From an uncultured Ardenticatenaceae bacterium (GTDB lineage: Bacteria > Chloroflexota > Anaerolineae > Promineifilales > Promineifilaceae), in NCBI GenBank assembly GCA_964579295.1, contig CAZOGK010000008.1:4974-68973 (forward strand): 64,000 bases of DNA. The letters run 5' to 3'. Made by a program: the position numbers and the translations under genes. Under the pieces are notes generated by a model that saw only the letters and a list, made by a program, of their open reading frames with translations, did no database searches and was not told where the DNA came from. Of the stretch, positions 4,248 through 19,714 are shown piece by piece. Each line of letters starts with the position of its first letter. The first letter of the stretch is position 1.

Positions 4248-4901
4248 GTGGCTCGGCCATTCCTGCTTTGCGCTATGCTCTGCTTGCTGGCGGCGGCGGT
4301 GGCCTGCCAGGGCGCCGAGGCGGATGCCTGTGACGAGGGCGGCGCCCTCTTCTTTGATGACTTCCGGGCCGACACCGATTGCGGCTGGGTACAGTACAAC
4401 CGCAGCGGCGCCAGCGTCCGCCTCGAAGGGGAGACGCTGCGCCTCGTTTCCAGCCAGCCGGGGCAGATCTGGTGGACGAACGTGGGACGCAACTTTGACG
4501 ATCTCATCCTCACCGCCGACATACAACATATCGACGGGCCGCCGGACAATGCCTACGGGCTCATCTGCCGCTACCAGAGCAGTGAGAACTTCTACGTCTT
4601 CCTGATCAGCAGCGACGGCTACTACGCCATCGGCAAATACCAGAGCGGAACGAGCCAGATTACCTACCTGAACGAGGGCGGGGAATATACCTTCAGTGAG
4701 GCTATCGACCAGGAATCGGGCGCCAATCGGCTGCGCGTCACCTGCATCGGCAGCGAGCTGACACTCTCGGTCAATGGCGTCTTGTTGGCAAGTGTCAGCG
4801 ATCCTACCTTTGTGACCGGGGATATTGGGCTGGCCGTCAGCACCTTCGAGCCCGGCCGTCTGGAGGTTGCCTTCGACAACGTGCGGGCCATTGCTCCATG
4901 A
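4248..4901 (+). CDS. Secreted lipoprotein of unknown function (jelly-roll/LamG-like guess)
   Basis: GTG start. Lipobox-like signal LLAAAVAC. It is a paralogue of the next gene, sharing AYGLICRY..ENFYVFLISSDGYY and a C-terminal VAFDNV motif. Confidence 0.55.
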   Translation: MARPFLLCAMLCLLAAAVACQGAEADACDEGGALFFDDFRADTDCGWVQYNRSGASVRLEGETLRLVSSQPGQIWWTNVGRNFDDLILTADIQHIDGPPDNAYGLICRYQSSENFYVFLISSDGYYAIGKYQSGTSQITYLNEGGEYTFSEAIDQESGANRLRVTCIGSELTLSVNGVLLASVSDPTFVTGDIGLAVSTFEPGRLEVAFDNVRAIAP

Positions 4902-9453: not shown

Positions 9454-10167
9454 TTAGCGGCAGCCCGCCACTTCCGTCGCTCGTTCATAATGCACTTCCA
9501 TGCCCAGGTACGGGGATGGGTCCAAGGTGTTGGCGAACTCCAGCTCGTTACGATAGCCGCCGGAGCCATTGTCCTGGACGATGGAGAAGTGCAGGTGCGT
9601 CCATACGCTGCGGGCACTGCCGCCGTTGTAATCGCCCGTGTAGCCCAGCAGCGTGCCCTGCTCCACGAACTGCTCCCGCGCTCCCGGCGGGAAGGCAGCG
9701 ACGATAAAGCTGTCGCCGTCACGCGATGCCATGTGTGTATAGTAGAGCCATAGCGGCCGGCCTGGCTGCAGCGGGTCGTCCGGCACGCGCTGGATGAGGC
9801 TGCTGACCCACGACGCCTCGCGGGTGACGTAGCCGTCATAGGCGGCATAGACCGGGGTCACCCCCGGCTCGCCGGCGCTGAAGATGTCGATGCCCTGGTG
9901 CGGCCGGCTGGCCGAGTAGGGGCCGCGCGGGTCGGCGTAGAGCAGGCCGATGAAGCCATCGGCCGGCAGGATAAACGGCGCGCCCGGGCACGCATCGCGC
10001 TGCACCGTGACCAGCGCGGCGCGCGTCGCTTCGCCGCCGCGCCACCAGGCGACGAAACGGCGACCGGCCGGGTCGCGCAGCTCTAGCAGCAACCCGGCGG
10101 CGCGGATGCCAGCATAGAGGAGGGCAAGGGCCAGCAGGCCGGCGAGGAGACGTCGGCGCGTCAGCAT
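9454..10167 (-). CDS. M23 family metallopeptidase with N-terminal membrane anchor
   Basis: N-terminal TM segment LLAGLLALALLYAGI. M23 motifs HQGIDIF and HLHFSI. Confidence 0.8.
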   Translation of the reverse strand: MLTRRRLLAGLLALALLYAGIRAAGLLLELRDPAGRRFVAWWRGGEATRAALVTVQRDACPGAPFILPADGFIGLLYADPRGPYSASRPHQGIDIFSAGEPGVTPVYAAYDGYVTREASWVSSLIQRVPDDPLQPGRPLWLYYTHMASRDGDSFIVAAFPPGAREQFVEQGTLLGYTGDYNGGSARSVWTHLHFSIVQDNGSGGYRNELEFANTLDPSPYLGMEVHYERATEVAGCR

Positions 10168-10299
10168 AAGGCCGGAAGTGTAGCACGTCCCCGGCCGGCA
10201 GACATGCGGCCGATAGGCTGTGAGACCTGTCAGCTATCCCAAAACCTGCACTGGTCTTGCTAACGGTGTTCTGGCGTCGCCGGCGGCGTTCCTGCTAAA

Positions 10300-10593
10300 A
10301 TGGTCCCTATGGACCTCACGATTCTCGGACCGGCAGTACTGGGGGTGGCGCTGGGTTACATTCTCATGATGATGTTTGTAGACCCGGACTACGATGGCTA
10401 CTATGGCTTTTCCGACCGCTTTGAACCCTCCTGGAAAGGGGTGCTTATGTTTGTCGCGGTCGCCCTCAGCGCCGGCCTGATCGCCCAGTTCCCCGAATCA
10501 CTGCGGCCATTTTCCGGCTATGCGCTGGGGGTCGGCATTGGCGTCTTTGCGCGGGAGCTGGTCCGCGTCGTCGCCATGCGCTTCTTTGACTGA
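10300..10593 (+). CDS. Small membrane protein, unknown function
   Basis: 97-aa ORF with three hydrophobic segments and good GC3. No recognisable motif. Confidence 0.4.
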   Translation: MVPMDLTILGPAVLGVALGYILMMMFVDPDYDGYYGFSDRFEPSWKGVLMFVAVALSAGLIAQFPESLRPFSGYALGVGIGVFARELVRVVAMRFFD

Positions 10594-10602
10594 CCGTTCG
10601 CG

Positions 10603-10638
10603 CACCAGGGGCTGCCAGGCGCCTGGCAGCCCCTGGTG
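10603..10638. terminator. 36-nt perfect palindrome between convergent genes
   Basis: CACCAGGGGCTGCCAGGC|GCCTGGCAGCCCCTGGTG equals its own reverse complement. No U-tract on either side. Confidence 0.4.
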
Positions 10639-10644
10639 TGTCGC

Positions 10645-11607
10645 CTAACTTTGTGGTTCCAGCTCGAGGGCAAAGTCCATCCACGCTGGCTTGGGCTTAT
10701 AGCCAAGCTGCAGGTTGAGCTGGAACATCGGGTTGTTCTCCTCATTTCCCGTCTCAATCGCCTTAGCGCCGTAGGCCTGGGCGAAACGGACGCCGTGCAC
10801 CTTTAGCGCCGTGGCGATACCGCGCCGCCGGTAGCTGCGCTTCACGCCAGTCAGACCCGTGTTCAGCCGCTCAGGATTAGCCAGGTTGCGCCATAAGTTG
10901 CTCATGCCAACGTAGTCGTCGCCGTCGAGCGCGACGTAGTAGGCTTCCGGCAAGAACTCTGGATTCTGCAGGACCGTCCGCTCATAATGGTCCAGGGCGA
11001 TCGGCGTGAGCGGATCGGGCGAGGGAACATCTTCGGTGAGCGTCGATTCCAGGTCATACGCCTTCTGCTTCCAATCCTCATCCTCGTCCTGCAGGGTCGC
11101 CAGTGTTTTGATGGTGATGCCATTCTCCAGCACCGCGCTCACCGTTGGCTCAAACCGCTTGAAGTCGAAGGCGGCGACCTCCAGCTCGCTGATCGGGTAG
11201 CGCATCAGGGGCTGGAAGCCGTGCTTCTCCAGAAAGCGCACCCCCTCCACCTGGTCCTCGCGCGTCTCGGCGACGATCTTCGCCGGGCGGAGCGGCTGCA
11301 CCGTCTCGCAGAGCTGCTCGTAGAGGGCGCTGCCGATGCCGCGGCGGCGGTAGTCGGGATGGACGGAGACGATGAACAGGTACTTACCTTCCTGGAATGA
11401 CCATTCCGGCTGGCGTATCGTGGCCCAGGCTACCATGCGCCCGCTCTCTCTGGCAACGAAACGCCGGAAAAAGTAGTCCAGATTGCGATTTTCGTCCCCA
11501 TAGCGAATCTGGCCGACGGTATTCTTATCGTCGGGCCAAATCGCATTATAGACTTCCACCAGCTGCTGGTAGCTATCGTCATCTGGCTCGAAAGGCTCAA
11601 TTTGCAT
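10645..11607 (-). CDS. Double-GNAT N-acetyltransferase (paralogue 1)
   Basis: Two acetyl-CoA motifs, VHPDYRRRGIGSALYEQL and VKRSYRRRGIATALK, and a C-terminal NEENNPMFQLNLQLGY. ATG 11607 (MQIEPFEP) is preferred over the track start at 11685. Confidence 0.8.
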   Translation of the reverse strand: MQIEPFEPDDDSYQQLVEVYNAIWPDDKNTVGQIRYGDENRNLDYFFRRFVARESGRMVAWATIRQPEWSFQEGKYLFIVSVHPDYRRRGIGSALYEQLCETVQPLRPAKIVAETREDQVEGVRFLEKHGFQPLMRYPISELEVAAFDFKRFEPTVSAVLENGITIKTLATLQDEDEDWKQKAYDLESTLTEDVPSPDPLTPIALDHYERTVLQNPEFLPEAYYVALDGDDYVGMSNLWRNLANPERLNTGLTGVKRSYRRRGIATALKVHGVRFAQAYGAKAIETGNEENNPMFQLNLQLGYKPKPAWMDFALELEPQS

Positions 11608-11630
11608 CTTCAGTTCTTTTCCTATTCCTG

Positions 11631-12719
11631 TCACAGTTCGTGTTCCTCGTATTGATTGCGACACGGCGGGCCGTCGCTGATCCACATACGCCGTTGTGCG
11701 AGGTCCATGATGACCGAGGTGACGGTGCGGTATTGCTCGTCAATTGGCGCGGCCGGGTCCTCGTGGCGACAGATGGTGCGCGGCTCCGTGGTGTGGTCGC
11801 GCAGCGCCTCCTGCACATCCGCCAGCGTAACGGGCATGGCGGCGCGCAGCTGCTGCTCCAGCCGTTCGTGCCGGCCGCAGGAGTAGCGGCGAAAGTCCGG
11901 GTCCGGCGGCTCGACCACGCCCAGCGCCTCCGGATCGACAAAGTGGTTGGCGTGGACAATGCATCCCTCCTGCCACTGCAGCACATGGCTGCGCGTTGGC
12001 GCGGCTTCCACGTTGACGGCTGCGCCAGAGGCGGTGGCGATGAGGAAGTTGCCGGAACAGGCGCGTTCGCTGCTGTCCAGCACCGCCTGCGCCGCCGCCA
12101 GCGTCGTCTTTTGCAGGATCTCATAGCAGCGGACGTGAAAGGGCTTGTGCAGCCTGGCCCAGTTGTCGCCGATGGTCGATAGACCGTTAATAGCCAGACC
12201 AAGCCCGGCGTCGTTCAGCCCAATCTTGCCGCCAAAGATGCCGGCTTCGGTGAAAGCCAGCGTCGCCGGCTGGCCGGCAGCCGTCGTGTGCACCACCGCG
12301 CCCTGCACTTCGGGAATCCAGTCCCAGTTCTGCCCCAGCAGCAGGCGACCGCTGGCCGTGGCCTCCGGCGCCAGGGCGAAGGCGGTGCAGCCGTCGCCGT
12401 AAAGCTCCTGGGTGCGTACGACAAAGGCATCGTAAAGCAGCTCGTAGCGCACGTTCAGTGCTACAACCTCCAGCTCCGCGATGCCGGCGCCGGCGGCGAT
12501 GCCGCGCATACCCTCCACATAGGCAGGGTTATGCGCGGCCATCGCCTGCGCATAGAGGGCGGCGCGCCGCAGCACTTCGCCGCGCGCCACGCCGCCCTCT
12601 CGCCAGAAGCGGTCGAAGTAGACGTCACGATTGTGCAGGACACGGTCGCGCAGGGTTACCCCGTGCGCGCGGCCCTGCTCGTAGGGAGTGCCGCTGGCCC
12701 GCAGGAGAGGGAGCGTCAT
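11631..12719 (-). CDS. Peptidase C45 / acyl-CoA:6-aminopenicillanic-acid acyltransferase-like Ntn protein
   Basis: N-terminus LRASGTPYEQGRAHG and a Gly110-Cys111 site in YGDG|CTAFAL, placed like the autoprocessing nucleophile of IAT-type C45 enzymes. ATGA overlap with the upstream GNAT. Confidence 0.7.
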   Translation of the reverse strand: MTLPLLRASGTPYEQGRAHGVTLRDRVLHNRDVYFDRFWREGGVARGEVLRRAALYAQAMAAHNPAYVEGMRGIAAGAGIAELEVVALNVRYELLYDAFVVRTQELYGDGCTAFALAPEATASGRLLLGQNWDWIPEVQGAVVHTTAAGQPATLAFTEAGIFGGKIGLNDAGLGLAINGLSTIGDNWARLHKPFHVRCYEILQKTTLAAAQAVLDSSERACSGNFLIATASGAAVNVEAAPTRSHVLQWQEGCIVHANHFVDPEALGVVEPPDPDFRRYSCGRHERLEQQLRAAMPVTLADVQEALRDHTTEPRTICRHEDPAAPIDEQYRTVTSVIMDLAQRRMWISDGPPCRNQYEEHEL

Positions 12720-13771
12720 ACGCTTTCCTTTCCCTTAAGCTGGTTGCGGTACTCGACCATCGCGGGCAGCGAGCGGAAGCCAAGCTGCAGATTGAGGTCG
12801 AGCATCGGGTTGTTCTCTTCGTTGTCCGTGTCGACTTCGACCGCGCCGAAATCACGCGCATAGGTCAGTGCGCGCACCTTCATCGCCGTCGCTAGGCCGC
12901 GGCGGCGGTGGCTGCGCACCACGCCGGTCAGGCCGGTGCCCAGCTTGTCGCCGCGCGTCGAGTCGCGCCACAGACAGCTCAGTCCCACGTACTGGTCACC
13001 GTCGACGGCGATGAACCAGCCTTCGGCCAGGAAGTTGGGGCTGCTGAAGAGCTTCTTTTCCCACTCGTCAAACGGCATCTGGGTATGCCCATCCACCGAA
13101 GGTACGTCCTGTACGCAGGCCCAGTCGAGGTCGTACACCTTGCGCTTCCACTCCGGGTCGCTCTGGCTCAGGTCGGCCAGGCTCCTGACGACGATGCCGG
13201 CCTGCGCAACGCGAGCCACTTTGTCGGCAAAGGGCGCCGGGTCAAACTCTTGCGGGTTGATACGCGAGACAGGCATACGCAGGGCAGGGCTAAAGTCGCG
13301 CTTCTCCAGGAACTGCACGGCGCGCGTGCGGCTCTCGCGGGTCCAGCTGACAAGCTCTCCCGGTTCGCGCTGCGCCAGGTCGGCCATCAGGTAGCCCCAG
13401 AGAGCGCTGCCGTAGCCTTTGCGTTCCTGCTGCGGATGGACGCCGACCCAGATGAAGTATTTGTCCTCGCGAAACGACCACGACTGGTGGCCGTACTGGC
13501 CGAAGGCGACAACCTCGCCGTCGCGCTCGGCAATGAAGCGGCGCAGCAGGTGGGCGGGATTGCGACCGCTGTCCCAATGGCGCCAGTTCTCAACGGAATC
13601 GGCATGTTCCGGGTCAATGGCGTTGTCCACGCGCACTACCTCTTCGTAATCGGCGACACTGTTGAAGTCAAACGGCCGGACCGAAAGGGTCTTACCGCTG
13701 CGCAGCTTGAGGGAGGCGACGGCCTCTGCCGGTCGCTGCTGGACTGTTGTAGCTGACTGTTGTGAATACAT
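12716..13771 (-). CDS. Double-GNAT N-acetyltransferase (paralogue 2)
   Basis: Motifs VHPQQERKGYGSALWGYL, VVRSHRRRGLATAMK and NEENNPMLDLNLQLGF. About half identical by eye to 13774-14871. Confidence 0.8.
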   Translation of the reverse strand: MYSQQSATTVQQRPAEAVASLKLRSGKTLSVRPFDFNSVADYEEVVRVDNAIDPEHADSVENWRHWDSGRNPAHLLRRFIAERDGEVVAFGQYGHQSWSFREDKYFIWVGVHPQQERKGYGSALWGYLMADLAQREPGELVSWTRESRTRAVQFLEKRDFSPALRMPVSRINPQEFDPAPFADKVARVAQAGIVVRSLADLSQSDPEWKRKVYDLDWACVQDVPSVDGHTQMPFDEWEKKLFSSPNFLAEGWFIAVDGDQYVGLSCLWRDSTRGDKLGTGLTGVVRSHRRRGLATAMKVRALTYARDFGAVEVDTDNEENNPMLDLNLQLGFRSLPAMVEYRNQLKGKESV

Positions 13772-13773
13772 GG

Positions 13774-14871
13774 CTAATTCTCCTGAGCCGGTGAGTTGTC
13801 TGCTGGTAGCTGGCCGTTTGCATGTGCCAGCCTGCCGTCAAGTTGATTGGTCATGATCAGCTCGGCAGGAAGCGGCCGGAAGCCAAGCTGTAGATTAAGC
13901 TGGTACATCGGGTTGTTTTCCTCGTTGCCGGTGTCCACCGTGACGGCGCCGTAGGCGCGCGCAAACGAGAGGGCGTTGGCCTTCATGGCCGTCGCCACGC
14001 CGCGGCGGCGATGGCTGCGCTTGACGCCGGTAAAGCCGGTACCCAGGCGCCGGTCGTCGGTCAGGTCACGCCAGAGGACGCTGAGGCCCACGTACTCGTC
14101 GCCGTCCACGGCGACGAACCAGCCTTCGGGCAGCAGGTTGGGCATCCCCAACGTCTGCTGGTCGTAGACCTCGAACTCCACTTTCGTCACTTCGTCAATC
14201 GACGGGACATCCCTTTCGACTTCGGCCTCCAGCTCGTACATGCGGCGCTTCCAGTCCGGGTCGCGCTGCATCAGCTCGGCCAGGGTAACAACCCGGATTC
14301 CCGCGCGCTCGGCCGCAGCAATCTTCTCGGCAAACGGCGCCGGGTCGAACGTCTGCAAGTCGATGCGCGACATCTGTTCGCGCATGCGCAGCATGAAGCC
14401 CCGCTTCTGCAGGAAGTCGAGCGCCCGCGGGCGGTTCTCCCGCGTAAAGGTCACCAGCTCGGCCGGCTGGCGTTCGTCGAGCTGCTGCCGCAAGTAGTCC
14501 CACAAGGCGCGGCCGTAGCCCTTGCCCTGCTCGTCGGGATGGACGCCAACCCAGATATAGTAACGGTCGGGATGATAGGCCCAGTCGAGGTGGCCGTAGG
14601 AGCCATAGGCGACCATCTCATCATCCTGTTCCACGACGTAGCGACGGAAGAGATACTGAGGGTCGCGGTTCAGGTCCCAGTGCCGCCAGGAGTCGGCCGA
14701 CTCCGGGAAATCGGGGTCAATGGCGTTGTTAATCGCCACGACGCGGCTGTAGTCTGAGCTGGCGCCAAAGTCGAACGGGCGCACGCGCACGGCGGCGCCG
14801 CTGCGCAGGCTGAGTGTCTCGCCCTGAGTCGCCGCGCGGGGCAGGTCGCTACTGGTCTGTTCGCTAATCAT
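13774..14871 (-). CDS. Double-GNAT N-acetyltransferase (paralogue 3)
   Basis: Motifs VHPDEQGKGYGRALWDYL, VKRSHRRRGVATAMK and NEENNPMYQLNLQLGF. It has the same TAGCCATG junction with its upstream gene as paralogue 2. Confidence 0.8.
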   Translation of the reverse strand: MISEQTSSDLPRAATQGETLSLRSGAAVRVRPFDFGASSDYSRVVAINNAIDPDFPESADSWRHWDLNRDPQYLFRRYVVEQDDEMVAYGSYGHLDWAYHPDRYYIWVGVHPDEQGKGYGRALWDYLRQQLDERQPAELVTFTRENRPRALDFLQKRGFMLRMREQMSRIDLQTFDPAPFAEKIAAAERAGIRVVTLAELMQRDPDWKRRMYELEAEVERDVPSIDEVTKVEFEVYDQQTLGMPNLLPEGWFVAVDGDEYVGLSVLWRDLTDDRRLGTGFTGVKRSHRRRGVATAMKANALSFARAYGAVTVDTGNEENNPMYQLNLQLGFRPLPAELIMTNQLDGRLAHANGQLPADNSPAQEN

Positions 14872-14873
14872 GG

Positions 14874-15572
14874 CTACTTTTCCTCATCTTGATGTCGTTC
14901 TTCAGGTCGGGAAGGGCGGACGCCGAGGGCGGCCAGGGCCGCCGGCACGTCCAGGCCGGGCCGATAGTGCACGGCGTGCATACCAATGGCCTGGGCGGCG
15001 CCGACGTTGGCGGCGCTATCGTCGATAAAGACAGCCTCCGCGGGCTGCCGCCCGAGTCGGTCCAGGGTCAAGAGATAGATTTGTTCATCTGGTTTCATGA
15101 CTTTCTCCTCAGCCGAGACCACGATCAGGTCGAAGTCGCCGGCTATCGGGTAGGTCCGCTCGAGGCTCACACGCAGACTGTCATTGAAATTGCTGATGAT
15201 CGCCGTCTGGTATTGGGGTCGAAGCGAGCGAATATACGCTACCAATTCCTCGTCAAGGGCATCGCCGGCCCAGAAGTCGCTGCGAAAAGCGGCAAGCCGC
15301 TCTTCGTCAAGCTCTAGCTGGGCGGCCACGTCCTGCCACAAAGCGGCTTCTGTCATGCGCCCTAGCTGCGCCCGTAGGCCGGCCGTGCTGTGAAAGACGA
15401 GCCATTCTGCCTGGCCCGGCTGCAGCGCCAGCTCACGTTCCCAGCGTTGCCGGCCGCTCCAATCATGGGTACGGACCAGCACGCCGCCGACGTCGAAGAT
15501 GACCGCCCGGATGCCGGACGCAGACTCGCTGTAATTAGCGTGTGACATGATTTGCCTTGTGCCGCCTGTCAT
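14874..15572 (-). CDS. HAD-superfamily hydrolase (subfamily IA-like)
   Basis: Motif I is AVIFDVGGVLV, with Gly in place of the second Asp. Later blocks are ISNF and FIDDSAANV. GGAG lies 7 nt upstream of ATG 15572. ATG 15548 is an alternative start. Confidence 0.7.
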   Translation of the reverse strand: MTGGTRQIMSHANYSESASGIRAVIFDVGGVLVRTHDWSGRQRWERELALQPGQAEWLVFHSTAGLRAQLGRMTEAALWQDVAAQLELDEERLAAFRSDFWAGDALDEELVAYIRSLRPQYQTAIISNFNDSLRVSLERTYPIAGDFDLIVVSAEEKVMKPDEQIYLLTLDRLGRQPAEAVFIDDSAANVGAAQAIGMHAVHYRPGLDVPAALAALGVRPSRPEERHQDEEK

Positions 15573-15640
15573 TCAGGCGCTCCATCTCAACGACTGATGG
15601 CATCATGATGGTCATCTCCTGACTCACGGGGCGCCCAAAC

Positions 15641-15686
15641 AAAAAAGGACGCCGCTCCTGTCTCTCCAGGCGCCGGCGTCCTTTTT
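15641..15686. terminator. Bidirectional intrinsic terminator
   Basis: A6, GGACGCCG stem, 19-nt loop, CGGCGTCC stem, T5. A U-run follows the hairpin on both strands. Confidence 0.7.
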
Positions 15687-15724
15687 CGGGTCGGCTGGCG
15701 CGGGTCGCGCCAGCAAGATGGATC

Positions 15725-15761
15725 AAAAAGGGCCGCAGGCACCTGGTGGTGCGTGCGGCCC
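15725..15761 (-). terminator. Intrinsic terminator just after the 36-codon sORF
   Basis: Minus strand reads GGGCCGCAcGCACC acca GGTGCcTGCGGCCC, a 13-bp stem with one mismatch, followed by TTTTT. Confidence 0.7.
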
Positions 15762-15783
15762 TGACATTCACGGAATCGTTATG

Positions 15784-15894
15784 TCAACAGCGCGCAAGCG
15801 CACCACTCCCAGGCAGGGGGTAATCTCCGCCGGCACGGCTGCCGACGGCGGTGATGAAGTGACGGGTGTGGTCATTCACCTGGTACGCCTCCAT
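15784..15894 (-). CDS. Candidate 36-aa small ORF / leader peptide (MEAYQVNDHTRHFITAVGSRAGGDYPLPGSGALARC)
   Basis: GAGG, 6 nt, then ATG. About three quarters of codons end in G/C, like real genes here. It has its own promoter and terminator. It falls below the 60-aa cutoff of the ORF track. Confidence 0.35.
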   Translation of the reverse strand: MEAYQVNDHTRHFITAVGSRAGGDYPLPGSGALARC

Positions 15895-15939
15895 GCAAAA
15901 CCTCACAATACTGCTGCGCACAATCGCGCTAACCCAGAC

Positions 15940-15969
15940 ACTTTAGCATAGCCGTGGCGCGGCTGTCAA
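15940..15969 (-). promoter_or_regulatory. Near-consensus sigma-70 promoter with extended -10
   Basis: Minus strand reads TTGACA, 18 nt, TAAAGT, with TGc immediately upstream of the -10. Confidence 0.55.
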
Positions 15970-16027
15970 GAGGGCCCTGGAATTTGTGTGACTGTCTGGG
16001 ACTCACAGGGGTAGGAGGTGAAAAGTA

Positions 16028-16079
16028 GAACGTTGAAAGCGGCTTTCTTCCAGCCTCTTACTTCCAGCTTTCAACGTTC
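16028..16079 (-). terminator. 13-bp perfect inverted repeat 12 nt downstream of the stop of gene 16091-17797
   Basis: GAACGTTGAAAGC, 26-nt loop, GCTTTCAACGTTC. On the minus strand it is followed by TACTTTTC. The loop holds a direct repeat GCTGGAAG x2. Confidence 0.45.
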
Positions 16080-16090
16080 AATTCCCCAGC

Positions 16091-17797
16091 TCACTCATCC
16101 AACAAAATCACCGGCTCCTGGTAATAGCGCAGCCGGCTGCGCGCCAACTTCTGGGCCAGGAAGTCGTTGAACCAGGCGCGCTTGGCGGGGAGGGGCTCGT
16201 CGGCGCGCAGCCGGTCCAGGTCGGCGTTGAGCCGCAAGATGCGGCCGGGGATCACAAATCGTGTCAGGCCGGCCGGCAGCAAGCGCCCGTGGCTGGCCGT
16301 CTCGAATACCTGCTCTGGCGCAAACTGCGGAAAGACGGCGACAGCCGCCATCTCCGGGAACTGGCCGCGCAGGCGTTCAATCTCTGTAACCAGCGTGCGC
16401 TCCACGTCGCCCCACATCGTGTAGCGCGCCACAATCTCGTTCAATACCGCCAGCCTGTCGGCCCCGGCGCCGGCGGCGGCCAGCGTCGCCTGCCCATCTC
16501 GGTCCAGGAAGAAACAGAGACCGGCGCCCTCGTTCAGGGCGCTTTGCGCGGCGTCCACGTGCATGGGGCAGAGCGTCAGGCCGGGGACCGTTCCTAGCGC
16601 GGCCAGCAGCTCTGCGACCGGCCGGTCACTGGAGATAACGTGGTACCAGGTATGTAGCTGGAAGTCATCGCGCTGCGCGTCGACCACCTGCACGATGACG
16701 TGCGGGCAGCCGATTCGCTGCAGCGCCGTAAAGCGCGTGGCGCCGTCGAGAATGATATAGCGCTCGTTCCAGTAGGTGACGATGGGCGGGTTAATCAGCC
16801 GGCTCTCCTGTTCCAGCCGCTCGGCCAGGCGGCTGACGCGCTTCTCGTCAATCTGCTCGTGCGGCGAGACCTGCTCAGCCGGCACAACTTCCAGCGACAG
16901 CGTTTCGCTGGGCCGCTTCACGCGCAGCAGCTCGACAACCTGCCGCACCACCGCCAGCACGTCCTCGCGGCGCCGGCTGCCGATGATGCGCGTCACGTGC
17001 GGCGCCAGCAGCACGCGCGGGTGCTGCCGCACGCGCTCGCTCGCCGCGCCGGCAGTGACGCCGGCCGGAAGCTGGGACAGCGCCGCGCCGGCAATCTGCC
17101 CGCTGTCCAGCGCCCTCAGCAGCGCTTCGTCGTCCACCAGGTCGGTGTGCCCGGTGTTGACCAGGAAGGCATGGGGCTGCATCTGCGCCAATTGCGGGGC
17201 GCCAATGATGGCTTCCGTTTCGGTCGTGAAGGGCACATGCAGGCTAACAAAATCCGACCGCTGCAGCAAATCGTGGAAGTCTGCCTGGGCCACACCGGCC
17301 GCCAGCGCCAGCTCTGGCGTCAGGCGCGGCTGGTTGACCATGACCTGCATGTCGAAAGCCAGCGCGCGCCGGCCTACCTCACGGCCAATCCCGCCAAAGC
17401 CGACGATGCCCAGCGTCTTGCCCGCCAGGCCGGAGCCCGACTCGTCCTGGATAGCCAGCCGCAGCATGAAGGCCAGCGTATGCTCGGCAATTGCCACGGC
17501 GTTGCTGCCGCGGATATTGCATACTTCCACGCCCATCGTGCGCGCCGCGGTCACGTCCACGTTGTCCAGGCGCGGGCTGAGCGAGCCGATGACCCGTAGG
17601 TCCAGGCCCTCCTCGATGACGTCGTGCGTGATCGTCGCCTCCGGGCCGACAATGAGCGCGTGGTAGTCGCCAATGACCCGCTGGATTTCGGCGTCGGGCA
17701 GGCCCGGCCGCACGTCGACGGCGGCCACGGCCTGCAGCAGGCGCAGCGCCTCTTCGTCAAGCGCTTCACAGACGAGGATGCGTTGCGGCTGGGTCAT
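16091..17797 (-). CDS. Fusion protein: D-2-hydroxyacid (phosphoglycerate) dehydrogenase-like domain plus ParB/sulfiredoxin-like domain plus unknown C-terminal region
   Basis: The N-terminal half has the Rossmann motif GIVGFGGIGREVG and AEHTLAFML. The usual NxARG and LDVF..EP blocks read VNTGHTDLVD and GAALSQLP. The middle region LINPPIVTYWNERYIILDGATRFTALQRIG resembles the ParB/Srx DGxxR core. Confidence 0.6.
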   Translation of the reverse strand: MTQPQRILVCEALDEEALRLLQAVAAVDVRPGLPDAEIQRVIGDYHALIVGPEATITHDVIEEGLDLRVIGSLSPRLDNVDVTAARTMGVEVCNIRGSNAVAIAEHTLAFMLRLAIQDESGSGLAGKTLGIVGFGGIGREVGRRALAFDMQVMVNQPRLTPELALAAGVAQADFHDLLQRSDFVSLHVPFTTETEAIIGAPQLAQMQPHAFLVNTGHTDLVDDEALLRALDSGQIAGAALSQLPAGVTAGAASERVRQHPRVLLAPHVTRIIGSRRREDVLAVVRQVVELLRVKRPSETLSLEVVPAEQVSPHEQIDEKRVSRLAERLEQESRLINPPIVTYWNERYIILDGATRFTALQRIGCPHVIVQVVDAQRDDFQLHTWYHVISSDRPVAELLAALGTVPGLTLCPMHVDAAQSALNEGAGLCFFLDRDGQATLAAAGAGADRLAVLNEIVARYTMWGDVERTLVTEIERLRGQFPEMAAVAVFPQFAPEQVFETASHGRLLPAGLTRFVIPGRILRLNADLDRLRADEPLPAKRAWFNDFLAQKLARSRLRYYQEPVILLDE

Positions 17798-18765
17798 GGC
17801 GCGCCCTCCGGCTGGTTGGCAAGCTGCAGCGCCAGCGCCAACAGGTCCACATTGCCGCCGCTGATGATGACGCCGGCGCGCCGGCCCGCTTCCCGGTAGC
17901 GGCCGCCGAGCAGCGGCGCCAGGGCCACAGCGCTGCTGGGCTCGATCACAATCTTGAGACGCTGCCAGACAAAGCGCAGCGTATCCACAATCTCCGCCTC
18001 GCTCACCGTGAGCATGTCGTCAACTAGCCGGGTCATGACGGCCAGATTGCGCTCGCCAATGAAGCGGGTGCGCAGCCCATCGGCAAGCGTGGCGGGCGTC
18101 TCCTCCAGCCGGTGAATGGCCCCGGCGCGCCAGGAGATGCCGGCGTCGCCGCCCGCTTCCGGCTCGACGCCAACGACGCGGCAGCGCGGCGATTGTCCGG
18201 CCGCGGCCAGCGCGCAGCCGCTTATCAGCCCGCCGCCGCCTACCGGGACAAACAGGTAGTCCAGCTCGCCAACCTCCTCGAAAAGCTCCCACGCTGCTGT
18301 GCCCTGGCCGGCGATAATGTGGCTGTTGTCATAGGGATGGACAAGGGCCAGTCCTTCGTCGCTGGCAAGCTGCGCGGACAGCCGCTCCCGCTCGCGGGCC
18401 GGGCCGGAAACGATACGCGCACCGTAACCAGCCGTCGCCTCCCGCTTAACCGCCGGCGCGTCGTCCGGCATGACCACTGTAGCCGGCACGCCGAGGAGCC
18501 GGGCCGCCAGGGCGACCCCCTGCGCGTGGTTGCCGCTGGAATGGGTCACGACGCCAGCCGCCTGCTGAGCCGCGCTGAGCTGGCTGATGGCGTTGTAGGC
18601 GCCGCGGAACTTGAATGAGCCGGCTCGCTGGAAGTTCTCGCATTTGAGAAAGATCTGCACTCCGGCCCGCTCGTCCAGCGTGCGCGATGTGTGCACGGGC
18701 GTGCGGTGCGCCACCGGGGCAAGCCGGCCGGCGGCGGCGGCGACATCAGCGGGAGAGAGATTCAT
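17794..18765 (-). CDS. PLP-dependent serine/threonine dehydratase family protein (fold type II, no ACT domain)
   Basis: PLP-lysine motif FLKCENFQRAGSFKFRGAYNA and glycine loop VPVGGGGLISG. ATGA overlap with the downstream fusion gene. Confidence 0.85.
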   Translation of the reverse strand: MNLSPADVAAAAGRLAPVAHRTPVHTSRTLDERAGVQIFLKCENFQRAGSFKFRGAYNAISQLSAAQQAAGVVTHSSGNHAQGVALAARLLGVPATVVMPDDAPAVKREATAGYGARIVSGPARERERLSAQLASDEGLALVHPYDNSHIIAGQGTAAWELFEEVGELDYLFVPVGGGGLISGCALAAAGQSPRCRVVGVEPEAGGDAGISWRAGAIHRLEETPATLADGLRTRFIGERNLAVMTRLVDDMLTVSEAEIVDTLRFVWQRLKIVIEPSSAVALAPLLGGRYREAGRRAGVIISGGNVDLLALALQLANQPEGAP

Positions 18766-18814: not shown

Positions 18815-19714
18815 TCAGTGGGCGCCTGGCTGCGCCTCGTCCTCCATTTCCTTCACCATCTCAATGCGCCGGAACGCCTCGAAGTAGCCGGCTTCGACAA
18901 AGCCGGCCCACTTCGGGTCGTCCACGGGGATATTCTCGGCAATGGCGTCCTGGGTCGGGTAGTAAGCGTGCAGCGTGCGCAGAATGGTCGCCGTAACGGC
19001 CGCCGGGTCGCCGCGCTGCACCTCGACGATGATGCGCGTGAGCCGCAGCAGGCTTGCTTTGTAGGTCACCCAGCCGGCGCCGCCCTCGTCGGTCTCTACC
19101 ACCAGGGCCGAAACGTCGGCGGCATTTTGCACCGACTCCGTCTGGTTGATCCAGTTGGGCGCGTCGCCGCGGCCGGCCAGGAGCTCTACCGTAGCGCGGT
19201 GGTCGAGCGTGCGCACGTCACGCACGTGCAGCTGCTGAGCGGTGTCTCCCGGCGCCATTTCCGGGAAGCGTGGCGGACGGCGGGCGACAATCAACATGCG
19301 CGTCTCGACAAAGTTGAGGCTGCGAAACAGCTCGTGCGCCGGGTTATTGCCGTCAATCACCTCCAGCCAGGTGCGCGGCGCGCCATGCCGGCAGGCCGCG
19401 TCGAGGAGAAAACCCATGATCGCCTTACCCACCCCCTGTCGCCGGCCGGAAGGCAGCACGCCTAGGCGCGTTACCCAGGCGCGGCGCGGCCGCAGACCGA
19501 GCATGCCGATGCCCAGAATCTCGTCGGCAGTCGCCGCCGCACAGGAAGAAGCGAGATCCACGTCGTAAACCTCGATATAGTCGCGCAGCCGCTGCACAGT
19601 CATCGGCATCGGGATGATGTAGTCGATGCGCGTCTCATTATAGGCATCGGCCAGTTCTTGCAGCGTGAACTCGGTTGCCGGGATCAGCTCTATGTCTGGA
19701 CTCTTACCATCCAT
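18815..19714 (-). CDS. GNAT family N-acetyltransferase
   Basis: Acetyl-CoA motif LGVLPSGRRQGVGKAIMGFLL. 299 aa with an extra C-terminal domain. Confidence 0.7.
   Translation of the reverse strand: MDGKSPDIELIPATEFTLQELADAYNETRIDYIIPMPMTVQRLRDYIEVYDVDLASSCAAATADEILGIGMLGLRPRRAWVTRLGVLPSGRRQGVGKAIMGFLLDAACRHGAPRTWLEVIDGNNPAHELFRSLNFVETRMLIVARRPPRFPEMAPGDTAQQLHVRDVRTLDHRATVELLAGRGDAPNWINQTESVQNAADVSALVVETDEGGAGWVTYKASLLRLTRIIVEVQRGDPAAVTATILRTLHAYYPTQDAIAENIPVDDPKWAGFVEAGYFEAFRRIEMVKEMEDEAQPGAH

Follow-up and report, generated by a model that had tools for sequence, protein, structure and literature searches.

What brings a HAD hydrolase, three related acetyltransferases and a C45 enzyme together on bacterial DNA, and what decides when they are made? 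Five genes lie on the minus strand at 10645–15572 of a 64,000-nucleotide stretch (hereafter the window) from an uncultured Ardenticatenaceae bacterium (contig CAZOGK010000008.1, positions 4,974 to 68,973). According to the list of open reading frames (ORFs) and the reverse-strand sequence, they encode one HAD protein, three tandem-GNAT paralogues and one C45 N-terminal nucleophile (Ntn) enzyme. The answer that we favour, at a probability of about 0.45, is that they form an inducible, ribosome-attenuated module that modifies amine or amide small molecules, with the detoxification of translation inhibitors or amino-acid antimetabolites as the best fit. The most informative clue to function is a conserved leader with a short ORF and terminators. 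It was absent from an earlier, sequence-only reading of the locus, as was the DrrAB-like exporter of most relatives. The superfamilies of all four protein types are known, and so is the regulatory principle. What is new is the module itself, the family-level behaviour of the GNAT proteins, a genomic context for bacterial C45 enzymes that resemble isopenicillin-N acyltransferase (IAT), and a conserved attenuator absent from Rfam.

The leader (15641–15969, minus strand) lies between the HAD gene and an upstream gene that ends at 16091. It comprises a promoter, an upstream ORF (uORF), a first terminator (T1), a variable hairpin and a second terminator (T2). Alignment of the regions upstream of HAD from 16 loci indicated that the promoter, the uORF with its Shine-Dalgarno sequence, T1 and T2 are all conserved. 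The sigma-70-like promoter (15940–15969, minus strand) consists of TTGACA, an 18-nt spacer and TG-n-TAAAGT (10/12 matches, extended -10), and conservation in the same alignment extends to the TTGACA and TATGCTAnAGT boxes.

By the pattern of its conservation, the leader ORF appears to be translated. It has 36 codons (MEAYQVNDHTRHFITAVGSRAGGDYPLPGSGALARC, then a stop; 15784–15894, minus strand) behind a GAGG Shine-Dalgarno sequence, and every relative has both the Shine-Dalgarno sequence and the ATG. In 15 loci the final 17 codons align without gaps, and the N-terminal part varies in length and sequence. The stop, whether TGA, TAA or TAG, keeps a single column across these loci. The tail of the peptide is conserved as G-G-[DG]-x-x-x-P-x-R-[GS]-A-x-x-x-C before the stop, with a spacing of x3-4 before the P.

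The last 10 codons of the uORF also contain the 5' strand of a predicted antiterminator (CCUGGGAGUGGUGCGC; 15798–15813, minus strand), which complements the 5' arm and loop of T1. T1 itself (15725–15761, minus strand) reads GGGCCGCACGCACC-ACCA-GGUGCCUGCGGCCC followed by UUUUU. Its hairpin has a predicted energy of -29 kcal/mol (-21 to -29 kcal/mol plus a U-tract across loci), with 89% of cells paired and a conserved loop. Bases 15742–15754 are common to T1 and the antiterminator, so that the two structures are mutually exclusive. In the window the antiterminator duplex reaches -26.2 kcal/mol, compared with -18.8 ± 3.8 for shuffled sequences. In every locus it lies between -20 and -27 kcal/mol (shuffles -13 to -19), comparable to T1. 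Moreover, cognate antiterminator pairs outperform non-cognate pairs in the divergent loci L019, L020, L077 and L084 (loci are numbered with the prefix L). The consensus helix found by RNAalifold is the antiterminator, with GUGGUGCG and CGCACCAC as predicted pairing partners. In 15 sequences 91% of its cells are paired, 4 have a GC-to-AU compensatory change, and the covariation score was reached in only 1 of 500 shuffles.

Downstream of T1, a hairpin whose sequence differs among loci (GCUGGCGCG-ACC-CGCGCCAGC; 15694–15714, minus strand) is part of the minimum-free-energy fold. It is followed by T2 (15641–15686, minus strand), recognized by alignment and fold, which comprises an A-tract, GGACGCCG...CGGCGUCC and UUUUUU. 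The base of the T2 stem, AAAGGACG(C/U)...(G/A)CGUCCUUUUUU, is kept in nearly all loci, and base changes deeper in the stem preserve pairing (judged by eye, uncounted). With a uORF behind a Shine-Dalgarno sequence, an intrinsic terminator before the first gene and an overlapping, mutually exclusive antiterminator, the leader has the predicted features of a ribosome-mediated attenuator.

Could the leader act instead as a metabolite- or protein-binding RNA, like a riboswitch, in which the ORF is incidental? It is strongly structured (folding z = -6.0 relative to shuffled controls), a second reading frame also looks conserved, and GGYGG...CUGCC and the block UGUUGACAUAA are conserved as nucleotides. 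Nevertheless we consider this explanation improbable. The start signals occur at every locus, the frame is free of insertions and deletions over 51 nt, and the stop keeps its column in otherwise divergent contexts. Ahead of the G-G codons both sequence and length vary, which leaves no conserved aptamer of several helices, and leaders with different uORFs share the architecture. No Rfam family matches either: the best match in 15400–16200 has E = 0.28, all matches there are implausible, and no known riboswitch or small RNA was found in the leader. The sole gathering-level Rfam match in the window is a thiamine pyrophosphate riboswitch (RF00059; 63327–63437, plus strand; 67.7 bits compared with a gathering score of 54.3).

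Around the uORF stop (UGA then C), the block (U)GUUGACAUAA (15784–15794, minus strand) is near-invariant in 12 loci. Its conservation exceeds what the peptide or the antiterminator would need; a termination-context effect and a binding site are possibilities.

How might the leader work? We propose that the promoter drives a leader transcript of ~360 nt that carries the translated 36-codon uORF, T1 and T2. A ribosome at the uORF stop, or within the last ~10 codons, would cover the antiterminator strand; T1 would then form and transcription would stop. A ribosome stalled ~11 or more codons before the stop, at or before the Gly-Gly-Asp codons, would leave that strand free to pair with the 5' arm of T1, and RNA polymerase would enter the operon. 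Once made, the GNAT paralogues would N-acetylate free amines, the C45 enzyme would cleave or exchange an N-acyl or peptidyl group, the HAD protein would remove phosphate and the exporter found in most relatives would remove the product. The architecture of this regulation has good support; we infer which way the switch works, what induces it and every substrate. Attenuators built from a uORF and a terminator control amino-acid biosynthesis operons or genes induced by translation stress.

A bolder version of this proposal, which we regard as doubtful, goes further in three respects. The uORF tail, G-G-[DG]-x3-4-P-x-R-[GS]-A-x3-C, would be a new stalling nascent peptide that senses a translation inhibitor or a shortage of aminoacyl-tRNA. 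The GNAT family would be a widespread inducible set of antibiotic- or antimetabolite-modifying enzymes in Chloroflexota and candidate phyla, and the IAT-like amidase, the HAD protein and the pump would complete a sense-modify-export system. The glycine enrichment of the uORFs (14% versus 6.8%) is suggestive only, the sequences being mutually related.

Leaders of this general kind are not confined to the five-gene operon. A covariance model built from the leader alignment found the leader in L087 and L086. It also gave weak matches in L057 and L051, immediately before double-GNAT genes, with uORFs that end in ..GGSDPGRSAPVG and ..GRSVSTCR before the stop. The L051 leader precedes a seven-gene GNAT array without HAD. 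A scan of metagenomes anchored on the leader gave one match, L086, again with the order uORF-HAD-GNAT, which says little about the specificity of the leader. A separate hairpin scan revealed a second leader class in Caldilineaceae and Anaerolineae metagenome-assembled genomes (MAGs), at double-GNAT genes of L049 (~4330–4560), L052 (~1640–1870) and L070 (~9745–9975). It consists of a TTGACA promoter, AAAGGAGG, a 21-codon uORF (MLRSIFPGIRLLHARPEPAIG and variants, with the pattern MLR..F.GI..L..RP(E/D).A.G before the stop), a terminator GGCCACGGGCGCA...UGCGCCCGUGGCC and U7. GCGCCC in this uORF complements GGGCGC of the terminator that follows, and the first GNAT gene starts immediately downstream. 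The hairpin scan also yielded other uORF-plus-terminator leaders at L074 and L083. In L051, L057, L049, L052, L070, L074 and L083 alike, the double-GNAT genes that bear a leader have neither HAD nor C45. As read from these sequences, uORF-plus-terminator control is a recurring feature of the operon's GNAT family within Chloroflexota.

A partial leader occurs in L010, an Ardenticatenaceae MAG (9790–10000). There a stand-alone gene 80% identical to the first GNAT gene of the operon has kept the promoter and T2 and lost the uORF and T1, and an ATG-started ORF reads through T2. The same MAG has a HAD-GNAT-C45 module on another contig (L021).

The leaders at GNAT-only genes also bear on a different explanation, in which the 36-codon ORF is the precursor of a ribosomally synthesized and post-translationally modified peptide (RiPP). 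The GNATs would acylate the peptide, C45 would trim it, the ABC-2 pump would export it, and a leaky T1 would set the ratio of precursor to enzyme. In a typical RiPP locus a short ORF with its own Shine-Dalgarno sequence comes before a hairpin, tailoring enzymes and an exporter; the tandem GNAT NpuN acylates a lanthipeptide; and the C-terminal part of our peptide is conserved and often ends in Cys. However, the conserved 3' part of the ORF is the covarying strand complementary to the terminator, which points to regulation, and a variable N-terminus with a conserved C-terminus reverses the usual leader/core pattern. GNAT-only arrays that lack peptidase and exporter, such as those of L051 and L049, also lie behind a leader of this kind, and there is neither a RiPP recognition element nor a known maturase. 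We therefore judge a RiPP system very improbable, and return to the attenuated modification module.

The genes under the leader are tightly packed. HAD (14874–15572, minus strand, as are all five) is followed by the first tandem GNAT, GNAT-A (13774–14871, 365 aa), and by GNAT-B (12716–13771, 351 aa), whose clade is sister to that of A. Next come C45 (11631–12719), an IAT-like Ntn proenzyme of 362 aa with a Gly110|Cys111 processing site, and GNAT-C (10645–11607, 320 aa counted from the ATG), from a deeper, separate clade. The junction TAG-CC-ATG (TAGCCATG) occurs twice, at 14876–14869 and 13776–13769; an ATGA overlap (12719–12716) joins GNAT-B to C45. The 23-nt gap between C45 and GNAT-C (11608–11630) contains AGGAAAAG, with the ATG of GNAT-C at 11607. 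The five ORFs, the 2-nt gaps, the overlap and the 23-nt gap described in the sequence-only reading are thus borne out by coordinates, and the junctions uphold its view of one coupled operon. Two starts have alternatives. A GTG at 11685 would make GNAT-C overlap the C45 gene, and HAD may begin at its second ATG (15548) rather than at 15572; the L004 orthologue is called from the second. Directly past the GNAT-C stop, a 36-nt palindrome read from the sequence (CACCAGGGGCUGCCAGGCGCCUGGCAGCCCCUGGUG; 10603–10638), without a U-tract, probably marks the 3' end of the operon. In our best explanation, 10603–15969 is a predicted single transcription unit.

A second small ORF, M(TIM)MPSVVEMERLNDRRHKANHVTR with its stop (~15540–15620, minus strand), sits between T2 and HAD and overlaps the HAD start out of frame. 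Similar peptides occur in the closest relatives, L004 and L008, only.

What are the three GNAT proteins? Pfam and NCBIfam profiles place two PF00583 (Acetyltransf_1) stretches in each. GNAT-A is 55% identical to GNAT-B and 42% identical to GNAT-C, and in an alignment of 32 family members the blocks TGxTGV.RS.RRRG.ATA.K and NEENNPM are invariant or nearly so; the paralogy and shared blocks recognized earlier are genuine. Along its entire length, the AlphaFold2 model of GNAT-A (pLDDT 90.7) resembles tandem GNATs of known structure. Those nearest in fold are 7q3a, 2wpw, 5kf1, 3tt2 and 1ozp, and VipF is also matched (Foldseek E 1e-15 to 1e-18, TM-score 0.6–0.74). Invariant positions are about twice as numerous in the C-terminal GNAT domain as in the N-terminal domain; this and the precedents of MshD and VipF make the C-terminal domain the probable site of catalysis.

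The acyl-CoA pyrophosphate-binding loop, Q/R-x-x-G-x-G/A, can be read in the sequences. The C-terminal domains of A, B and C all carry RRRG[VLI]A, and the N-terminal domains carry QGKGYG in A, ERKGYG in B (with its first residue off consensus) and RRRGIG in C. All three proteins thus appear at motif level to be acyl-CoA binders. Two GNAT domains in each protein are confirmed; the count of six acetyl-CoA sites proposed from the sequence alone holds at motif level, with the N-terminal loop of GNAT-B deviating.

Two specific identities can be set aside. The sequence-only reading had named an MshD-type (mycothiol synthase) identity as one example of a match that would speak against it, and JGI labels some GNAT homologues in this way. 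With TIGR03448, however, GNAT-C scores 21 bits and a neighbouring 299-aa GNAT 23 bits against a cut-off of 163, and GNAT-A and GNAT-B have no match. An Eis-type aminoglycoside multi-acetyltransferase has two GNAT domains plus a C-terminal SCP2-like domain and is hexameric; our chains stop after the second GNAT domain, and their TM-score to Eis (3sxn) is 0.45–0.49.

The operon GNATs belong to a distinct, medium-sized, uncharacterized family: an exhaustive HMMER scan gave 865 clusters at the 50% identity level (E ≤ 1e-30). One 644-aa representative, P0241, holds two full query matches and looks like two fused tandem GNATs, with four domains. The 299-aa GNAT protein is encoded at 18815–19714 (minus strand) of the window, downstream of a response-regulator gene; it has one clear GNAT domain, is ~20% identical to the operon GNATs and is syntenic in relatives.

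The C45 enzyme can be placed more closely. It scores 257.5 bits with NF040521 (C45_proenzyme; cut-off 85) and 53.3 with PF03417 (cut-off 23.2), and its alignment with Penicillium chrysogenum IAT (E 6e-20) spans the whole protein. In that alignment Gly110-Cys111 falls on the Gly102-Cys103 processing site, as the sequence-only reading had supposed from its position. D109-G110-C111-T112 and N131-W132-D133 are invariant in 29 C45 homologues, and superposing the AlphaFold2 model (pLDDT 91.9) on the precursor form of IAT gives a TM-score of 0.88. A Gly-Cys autoprocessing site is therefore present at the level of sequence, with Cys111 as the putative N-terminal nucleophile.

The HAD protein is a HAD-IA variant 3 hydrolase of the YihX/3cnh type (TIGR01509, 67.7 bits against a cut-off of 29.4; PF00702 also matched). 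It has the motif I Asp (FDVGG, in FDVGGVL), the motif II Ser (IISN), the motif III Lys (KPD) and the motif IV Asp pair (FIDDS), motifs II–IV being intact. In motif I the D+2 position, where the second Asp would serve as general acid/base, is Gly. The DVGG in place of DxDG had been read from the sequence correctly; the oddity attached to it does not stand. The same D-x-G-G occurs in the best solved homologues, 3cnh (FWDIGGVLL) and 2i6x (FDLGGVLI), and YihX-type glucose-1-phosphatases are among the matches. We accordingly reject the idea of an unusual or inactive HAD, this being the normal motif I of the subgroup.

Do these enzymes belong together, or are they housekeeping genes that happen to share a transcript, the GNATs being RimI-like or lysine protein acetyltransferases and C45 and HAD acting independently? 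The best NCBIfam matches of the GNATs are indeed weak RimI matches, C45 orthologues at ~55% identity occur with no GNAT neighbour (for example L089), and in most phyla the GNAT family has neither C45 nor HAD. A survey anchored on the GNATs, with one genome per species and with HAD, GNAT and C45 mapped by tblastn, makes this explanation improbable. Ardenticatenaceae MAGs are the closest relatives (80% identity). MAGs of Ardenticatenaceae, Promineifilaceae and Sulfomarinibacteraceae and others labelled Anaerolineae (L011–L021) share the order HAD-GNAT(1–3)-C45 at 45–60% protein identity, with overlapping or 2-nt junctions, and the same module is found in metagenomic contigs L004 and L007–L009. 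C45 lies beside a GNAT again in a Fraserbacteria MAG (L043) and in Herpetosiphonaceae (L088), where a single-domain GNAT follows 1 nt later; and a single dedicated attenuator precedes the whole set. L087, a 'Binatia'-labelled contig found through C45, carries the whole module and the leader amid different flanking genes, so the module moves as a unit.

The conserved form of the module is leader-HAD-GNATn-C45(-GNAT)(-ABC2). The DrrAB-like pair of ABC-2 ATPase and permease follows it in L004, L008, L009, L011, L017 and L087, 75–95% identical between loci, and the L014 contig ends within the ATPase gene. Elsewhere, in Eisenbacteria, Armatimonadota, Caldilineaceae, Cloacimonadota and others, the family forms tandem arrays of 2–7 paralogues without C45 or HAD; head-to-tail arrays of 5–7 are seen in L045, L051, L030 and L026 (Eisenbacteria and Anaerolineae MAGs). 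The co-occurrence of HAD, tandem GNATs and C45, which the sequence-only reading had proposed as a check, thus holds in several Chloroflexota families and in L087, but most other phyla have GNAT arrays alone. The association is real and lineage-limited; what marks the family at large is its expansion into tandem paralogues. Clustering of neighbours gave the arrays of other phyla no universal partner beyond lineage-specific synteny; an 'MDR-type ABC' cluster turned out to be a loose single-linkage group, not consistently adjacent to arrays.

The paralogues probably arose in place. In a neighbour-joining tree GNAT-A and GNAT-B form sister clades, each with L004 and L007 orthologues, and GNAT-C forms a separate clade. 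Relatives without GNAT-A have a HAD tail and junction homologous to the 3' tail of GNAT-A (ending ..AQEN) and the junction that follows it; the L004 GNAT-A tail and the L008 HAD tail are identical at 33 of 40 nt. These sequences support an in-place duplication that captured the 3' end of HAD, and they give substance to the duplication first suggested by the repeated junction. The event is old, predating the split from 70%-identical relatives. A recent duplication is ruled out, the 70%-identity orthologues in relatives being closer than the paralogues are to each other.

Given that the genes form a unit, is that unit protective or biosynthetic? The role suggested from the sequence alone, amine or peptide (de)acylation for tailoring, detoxification or peptide modification, is a broad one. 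Expansion-prone acetyltransferases, an IAT-type amidase/acyltransferase, a phosphatase and, in most relatives, a DrrAB-like exporter together argue for modification or detoxification. The competing possibility is a tailoring module, in which the enzymes build or complete a compound of the cell's own, such as an N-acetylated amino-sugar, a thiol or a peptide-like molecule, by the logic of mycothiol or clavulanate ORF14; the ABC-2 pump would carry the product out, and the leader would sense the supply of precursor amino acids. Among the tandem GNATs with known structures and a similar fold are MshD, the clavulanate ORF14 protein and a glucosamine N-acetyltransferase. A phosphatase, an amidase and a tandem GNAT mirror three mycothiol steps (MshA2, MshB and MshD), the exporter is highly conserved, and IAT, the sole characterized close C45 relative, is biosynthetic. 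But neither in the operon nor among the genes that accompany it is there a glycosyltransferase, a ligase, a non-ribosomal peptide or polyketide synthase, or any other gene that would form a scaffold, and the MshD equivalog score is far under its cut-off. GNAT copies vary from 1 to 3 among close relatives and up to 7 elsewhere, which is unusual for a fixed pathway, and classical amino-acid attenuators govern synthesis of the amino acid that they sense, not acetyltransferases. On balance we think tailoring unlikely.

Several observations weigh against the inducible detoxification module that we prefer. The leader has a second terminator for which no antiterminator was identified and which read-through would still have to pass to reach the HAD gene. 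Codon-position entropy at the G-G and L-P codons gave an ambiguous answer between selection on peptide and on RNA, since GGYGG can pair with CUGCC and G-U pairs are tolerated at wobble positions; these codons could be constrained by the RNA rather than by the peptide, and the proposed stall site is a guess. Neither the covariance model nor the hairpin scan detected a leader at the GNAT arrays of Eisenbacteria, Armatimonadota and other phyla. In the profile search no GNAT matched a characterized resistance acetyltransferase family above noise (RimI and ArsN1/PAT/AAC(3) were at noise level), and GNAT-A shares only 12–20% identity with the tandem GNATs of known structure. Simple acetylation-type resistance would have no evident use for a phosphatase and an Ntn amidase, and the DrrAB-like exporter pair is missing after the module in the window. 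Finally, part of the synteny comes from fairly close relatives, in which the wider flanks are syntenic too.

The surroundings of the operon are as follows. Directly after GNAT-C (10168–10645) come a 97-aa membrane ORF (10300–10593, plus strand) and an M23 peptidase gene, and in L004 (14321–16106) these two flank the ABC pair. On the other side, 16091–17797 (minus strand) encodes a 568-aa fusion of an N-terminal phosphoglycerate-dehydrogenase-like 2-hydroxyacid dehydrogenase and a C-terminal ParB_N/SbnI/SerK-like domain (NF033589, E 7e-25; NF053625 L-serine kinase, E 2e-10). This gene overlaps by 4 nt with that of a threo-3-hydroxy-L-aspartate ammonia-lyase-like pyridoxal-phosphate enzyme (17794–18765; 440 bits, cut-off 452). 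The pair is unusual, related to Ser/Gly, and syntenic in Ardenticatenaceae relatives. An anti-phage defence system was considered and rejected, PADLOC having returned no match for any of the five operon proteins. A plasmid-borne resistance context was also considered and dropped, the four weak plasmid matches (26–31% identical) being uninformative. Literature searches on tandem GNAT, peptidase C45 and 'C45 family' found no paper that addresses the HAD-GNAT-C45 module.

If our reading is right, the locus would be a self-contained sense-modify-export system in poorly studied environmental phyla. It would provide the first functional context for the large bacterial IAT-like C45 clade, which has no member with a known substrate, and it would join an uncharacterized, paralogue-expanding tandem-GNAT family to a leader-peptide attenuator outside Rfam. 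Ribosome-stalling control of resistance genes, so far described in Firmicutes and Actinobacteria, would extend to Chloroflexota. The leader is also an experimental handle: a reporter fusion could reveal the inducer, and hence the substrates of the enzymes. Even if the function proved to be housekeeping, a clean annotation of a conserved operon and a new attenuator motif would remain.

How does the module compare with systems that are already understood? Each protein has recognizable counterparts. The HAD protein shares the HAD-IA variant 3 core and the D-x-G-G/N motif I with YihX-type phosphatases, 3cnh and 2i6x, but scores below every equivalog cut-off. The C45 enzyme resembles IAT (MEROPS C45; PDB 2x1c/2x1d) in full-length homology, overall fold, Gly|Cys site and a conserved NWD motif; it differs in being only 25% identical and bacterial, with no beta-lactam genes, and it belongs to a large bacterial clade of >1700 homologues. 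The GNATs have the same two-domain fold, with P-loops in both domains, as the clavulanate ORF14 protein CBG (2wpw), the Clostridium acetobutylicum glucosamine N-acetyltransferase (5kf1), MshD (1ozp) and Sphaerobacter 3tt2. They are set apart from the solved proteins by their own signature (TGxTGVxRSxRRRGxATAxK and NEENNPM) and by their strong tendency to form tandem arrays.

As a set, the enzymes recall self-resistance to puromycin (pac, napH, pur3 and pur8) and to microcin C (MccE and MccF), in which an N-acetyltransferase, an amide hydrolase, a phosphatase and an exporter are directed against a translation inhibitor. This resemblance is functional only, and homology was neither found nor tested beyond the GNAT superfamily.

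The proposed control of the operon has close parallels. Resistance genes under a uORF and a terminator include bmrCD (PMC4191407), vmlR (PMC9226507) and whiB7 (PMC10274678); the uORF of whiB7 reacts to amino-acid starvation as well as to drugs that target the ribosome (PMC10274678). The structure that GNAT-A matches best leads to the same circuit: Mycobacterium abscessus MAB_4324c (7q3a), with the same two-GNAT-domain fold, is a tandem GNAT of the WhiB7 regulon, which includes Eis2; ribosome-targeting drugs induce it, and it has weak acetylating activity on amikacin (PMC10727445). Like Bacillus subtilis bmrB-bmrCD and vmlR and mycobacterial whiB7, our locus has a promoter, a short translated uORF, an intrinsic terminator predicted to depend on ribosome position, and candidate drug-handling genes downstream. 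Yet its leader has no sequence relationship to theirs and carries two consecutive conserved terminators. Its uORF is longer, with a conserved C-terminal tail at a fixed spacing from the stop, and would directly control genes for acetyltransferases, an amidase and a phosphatase.

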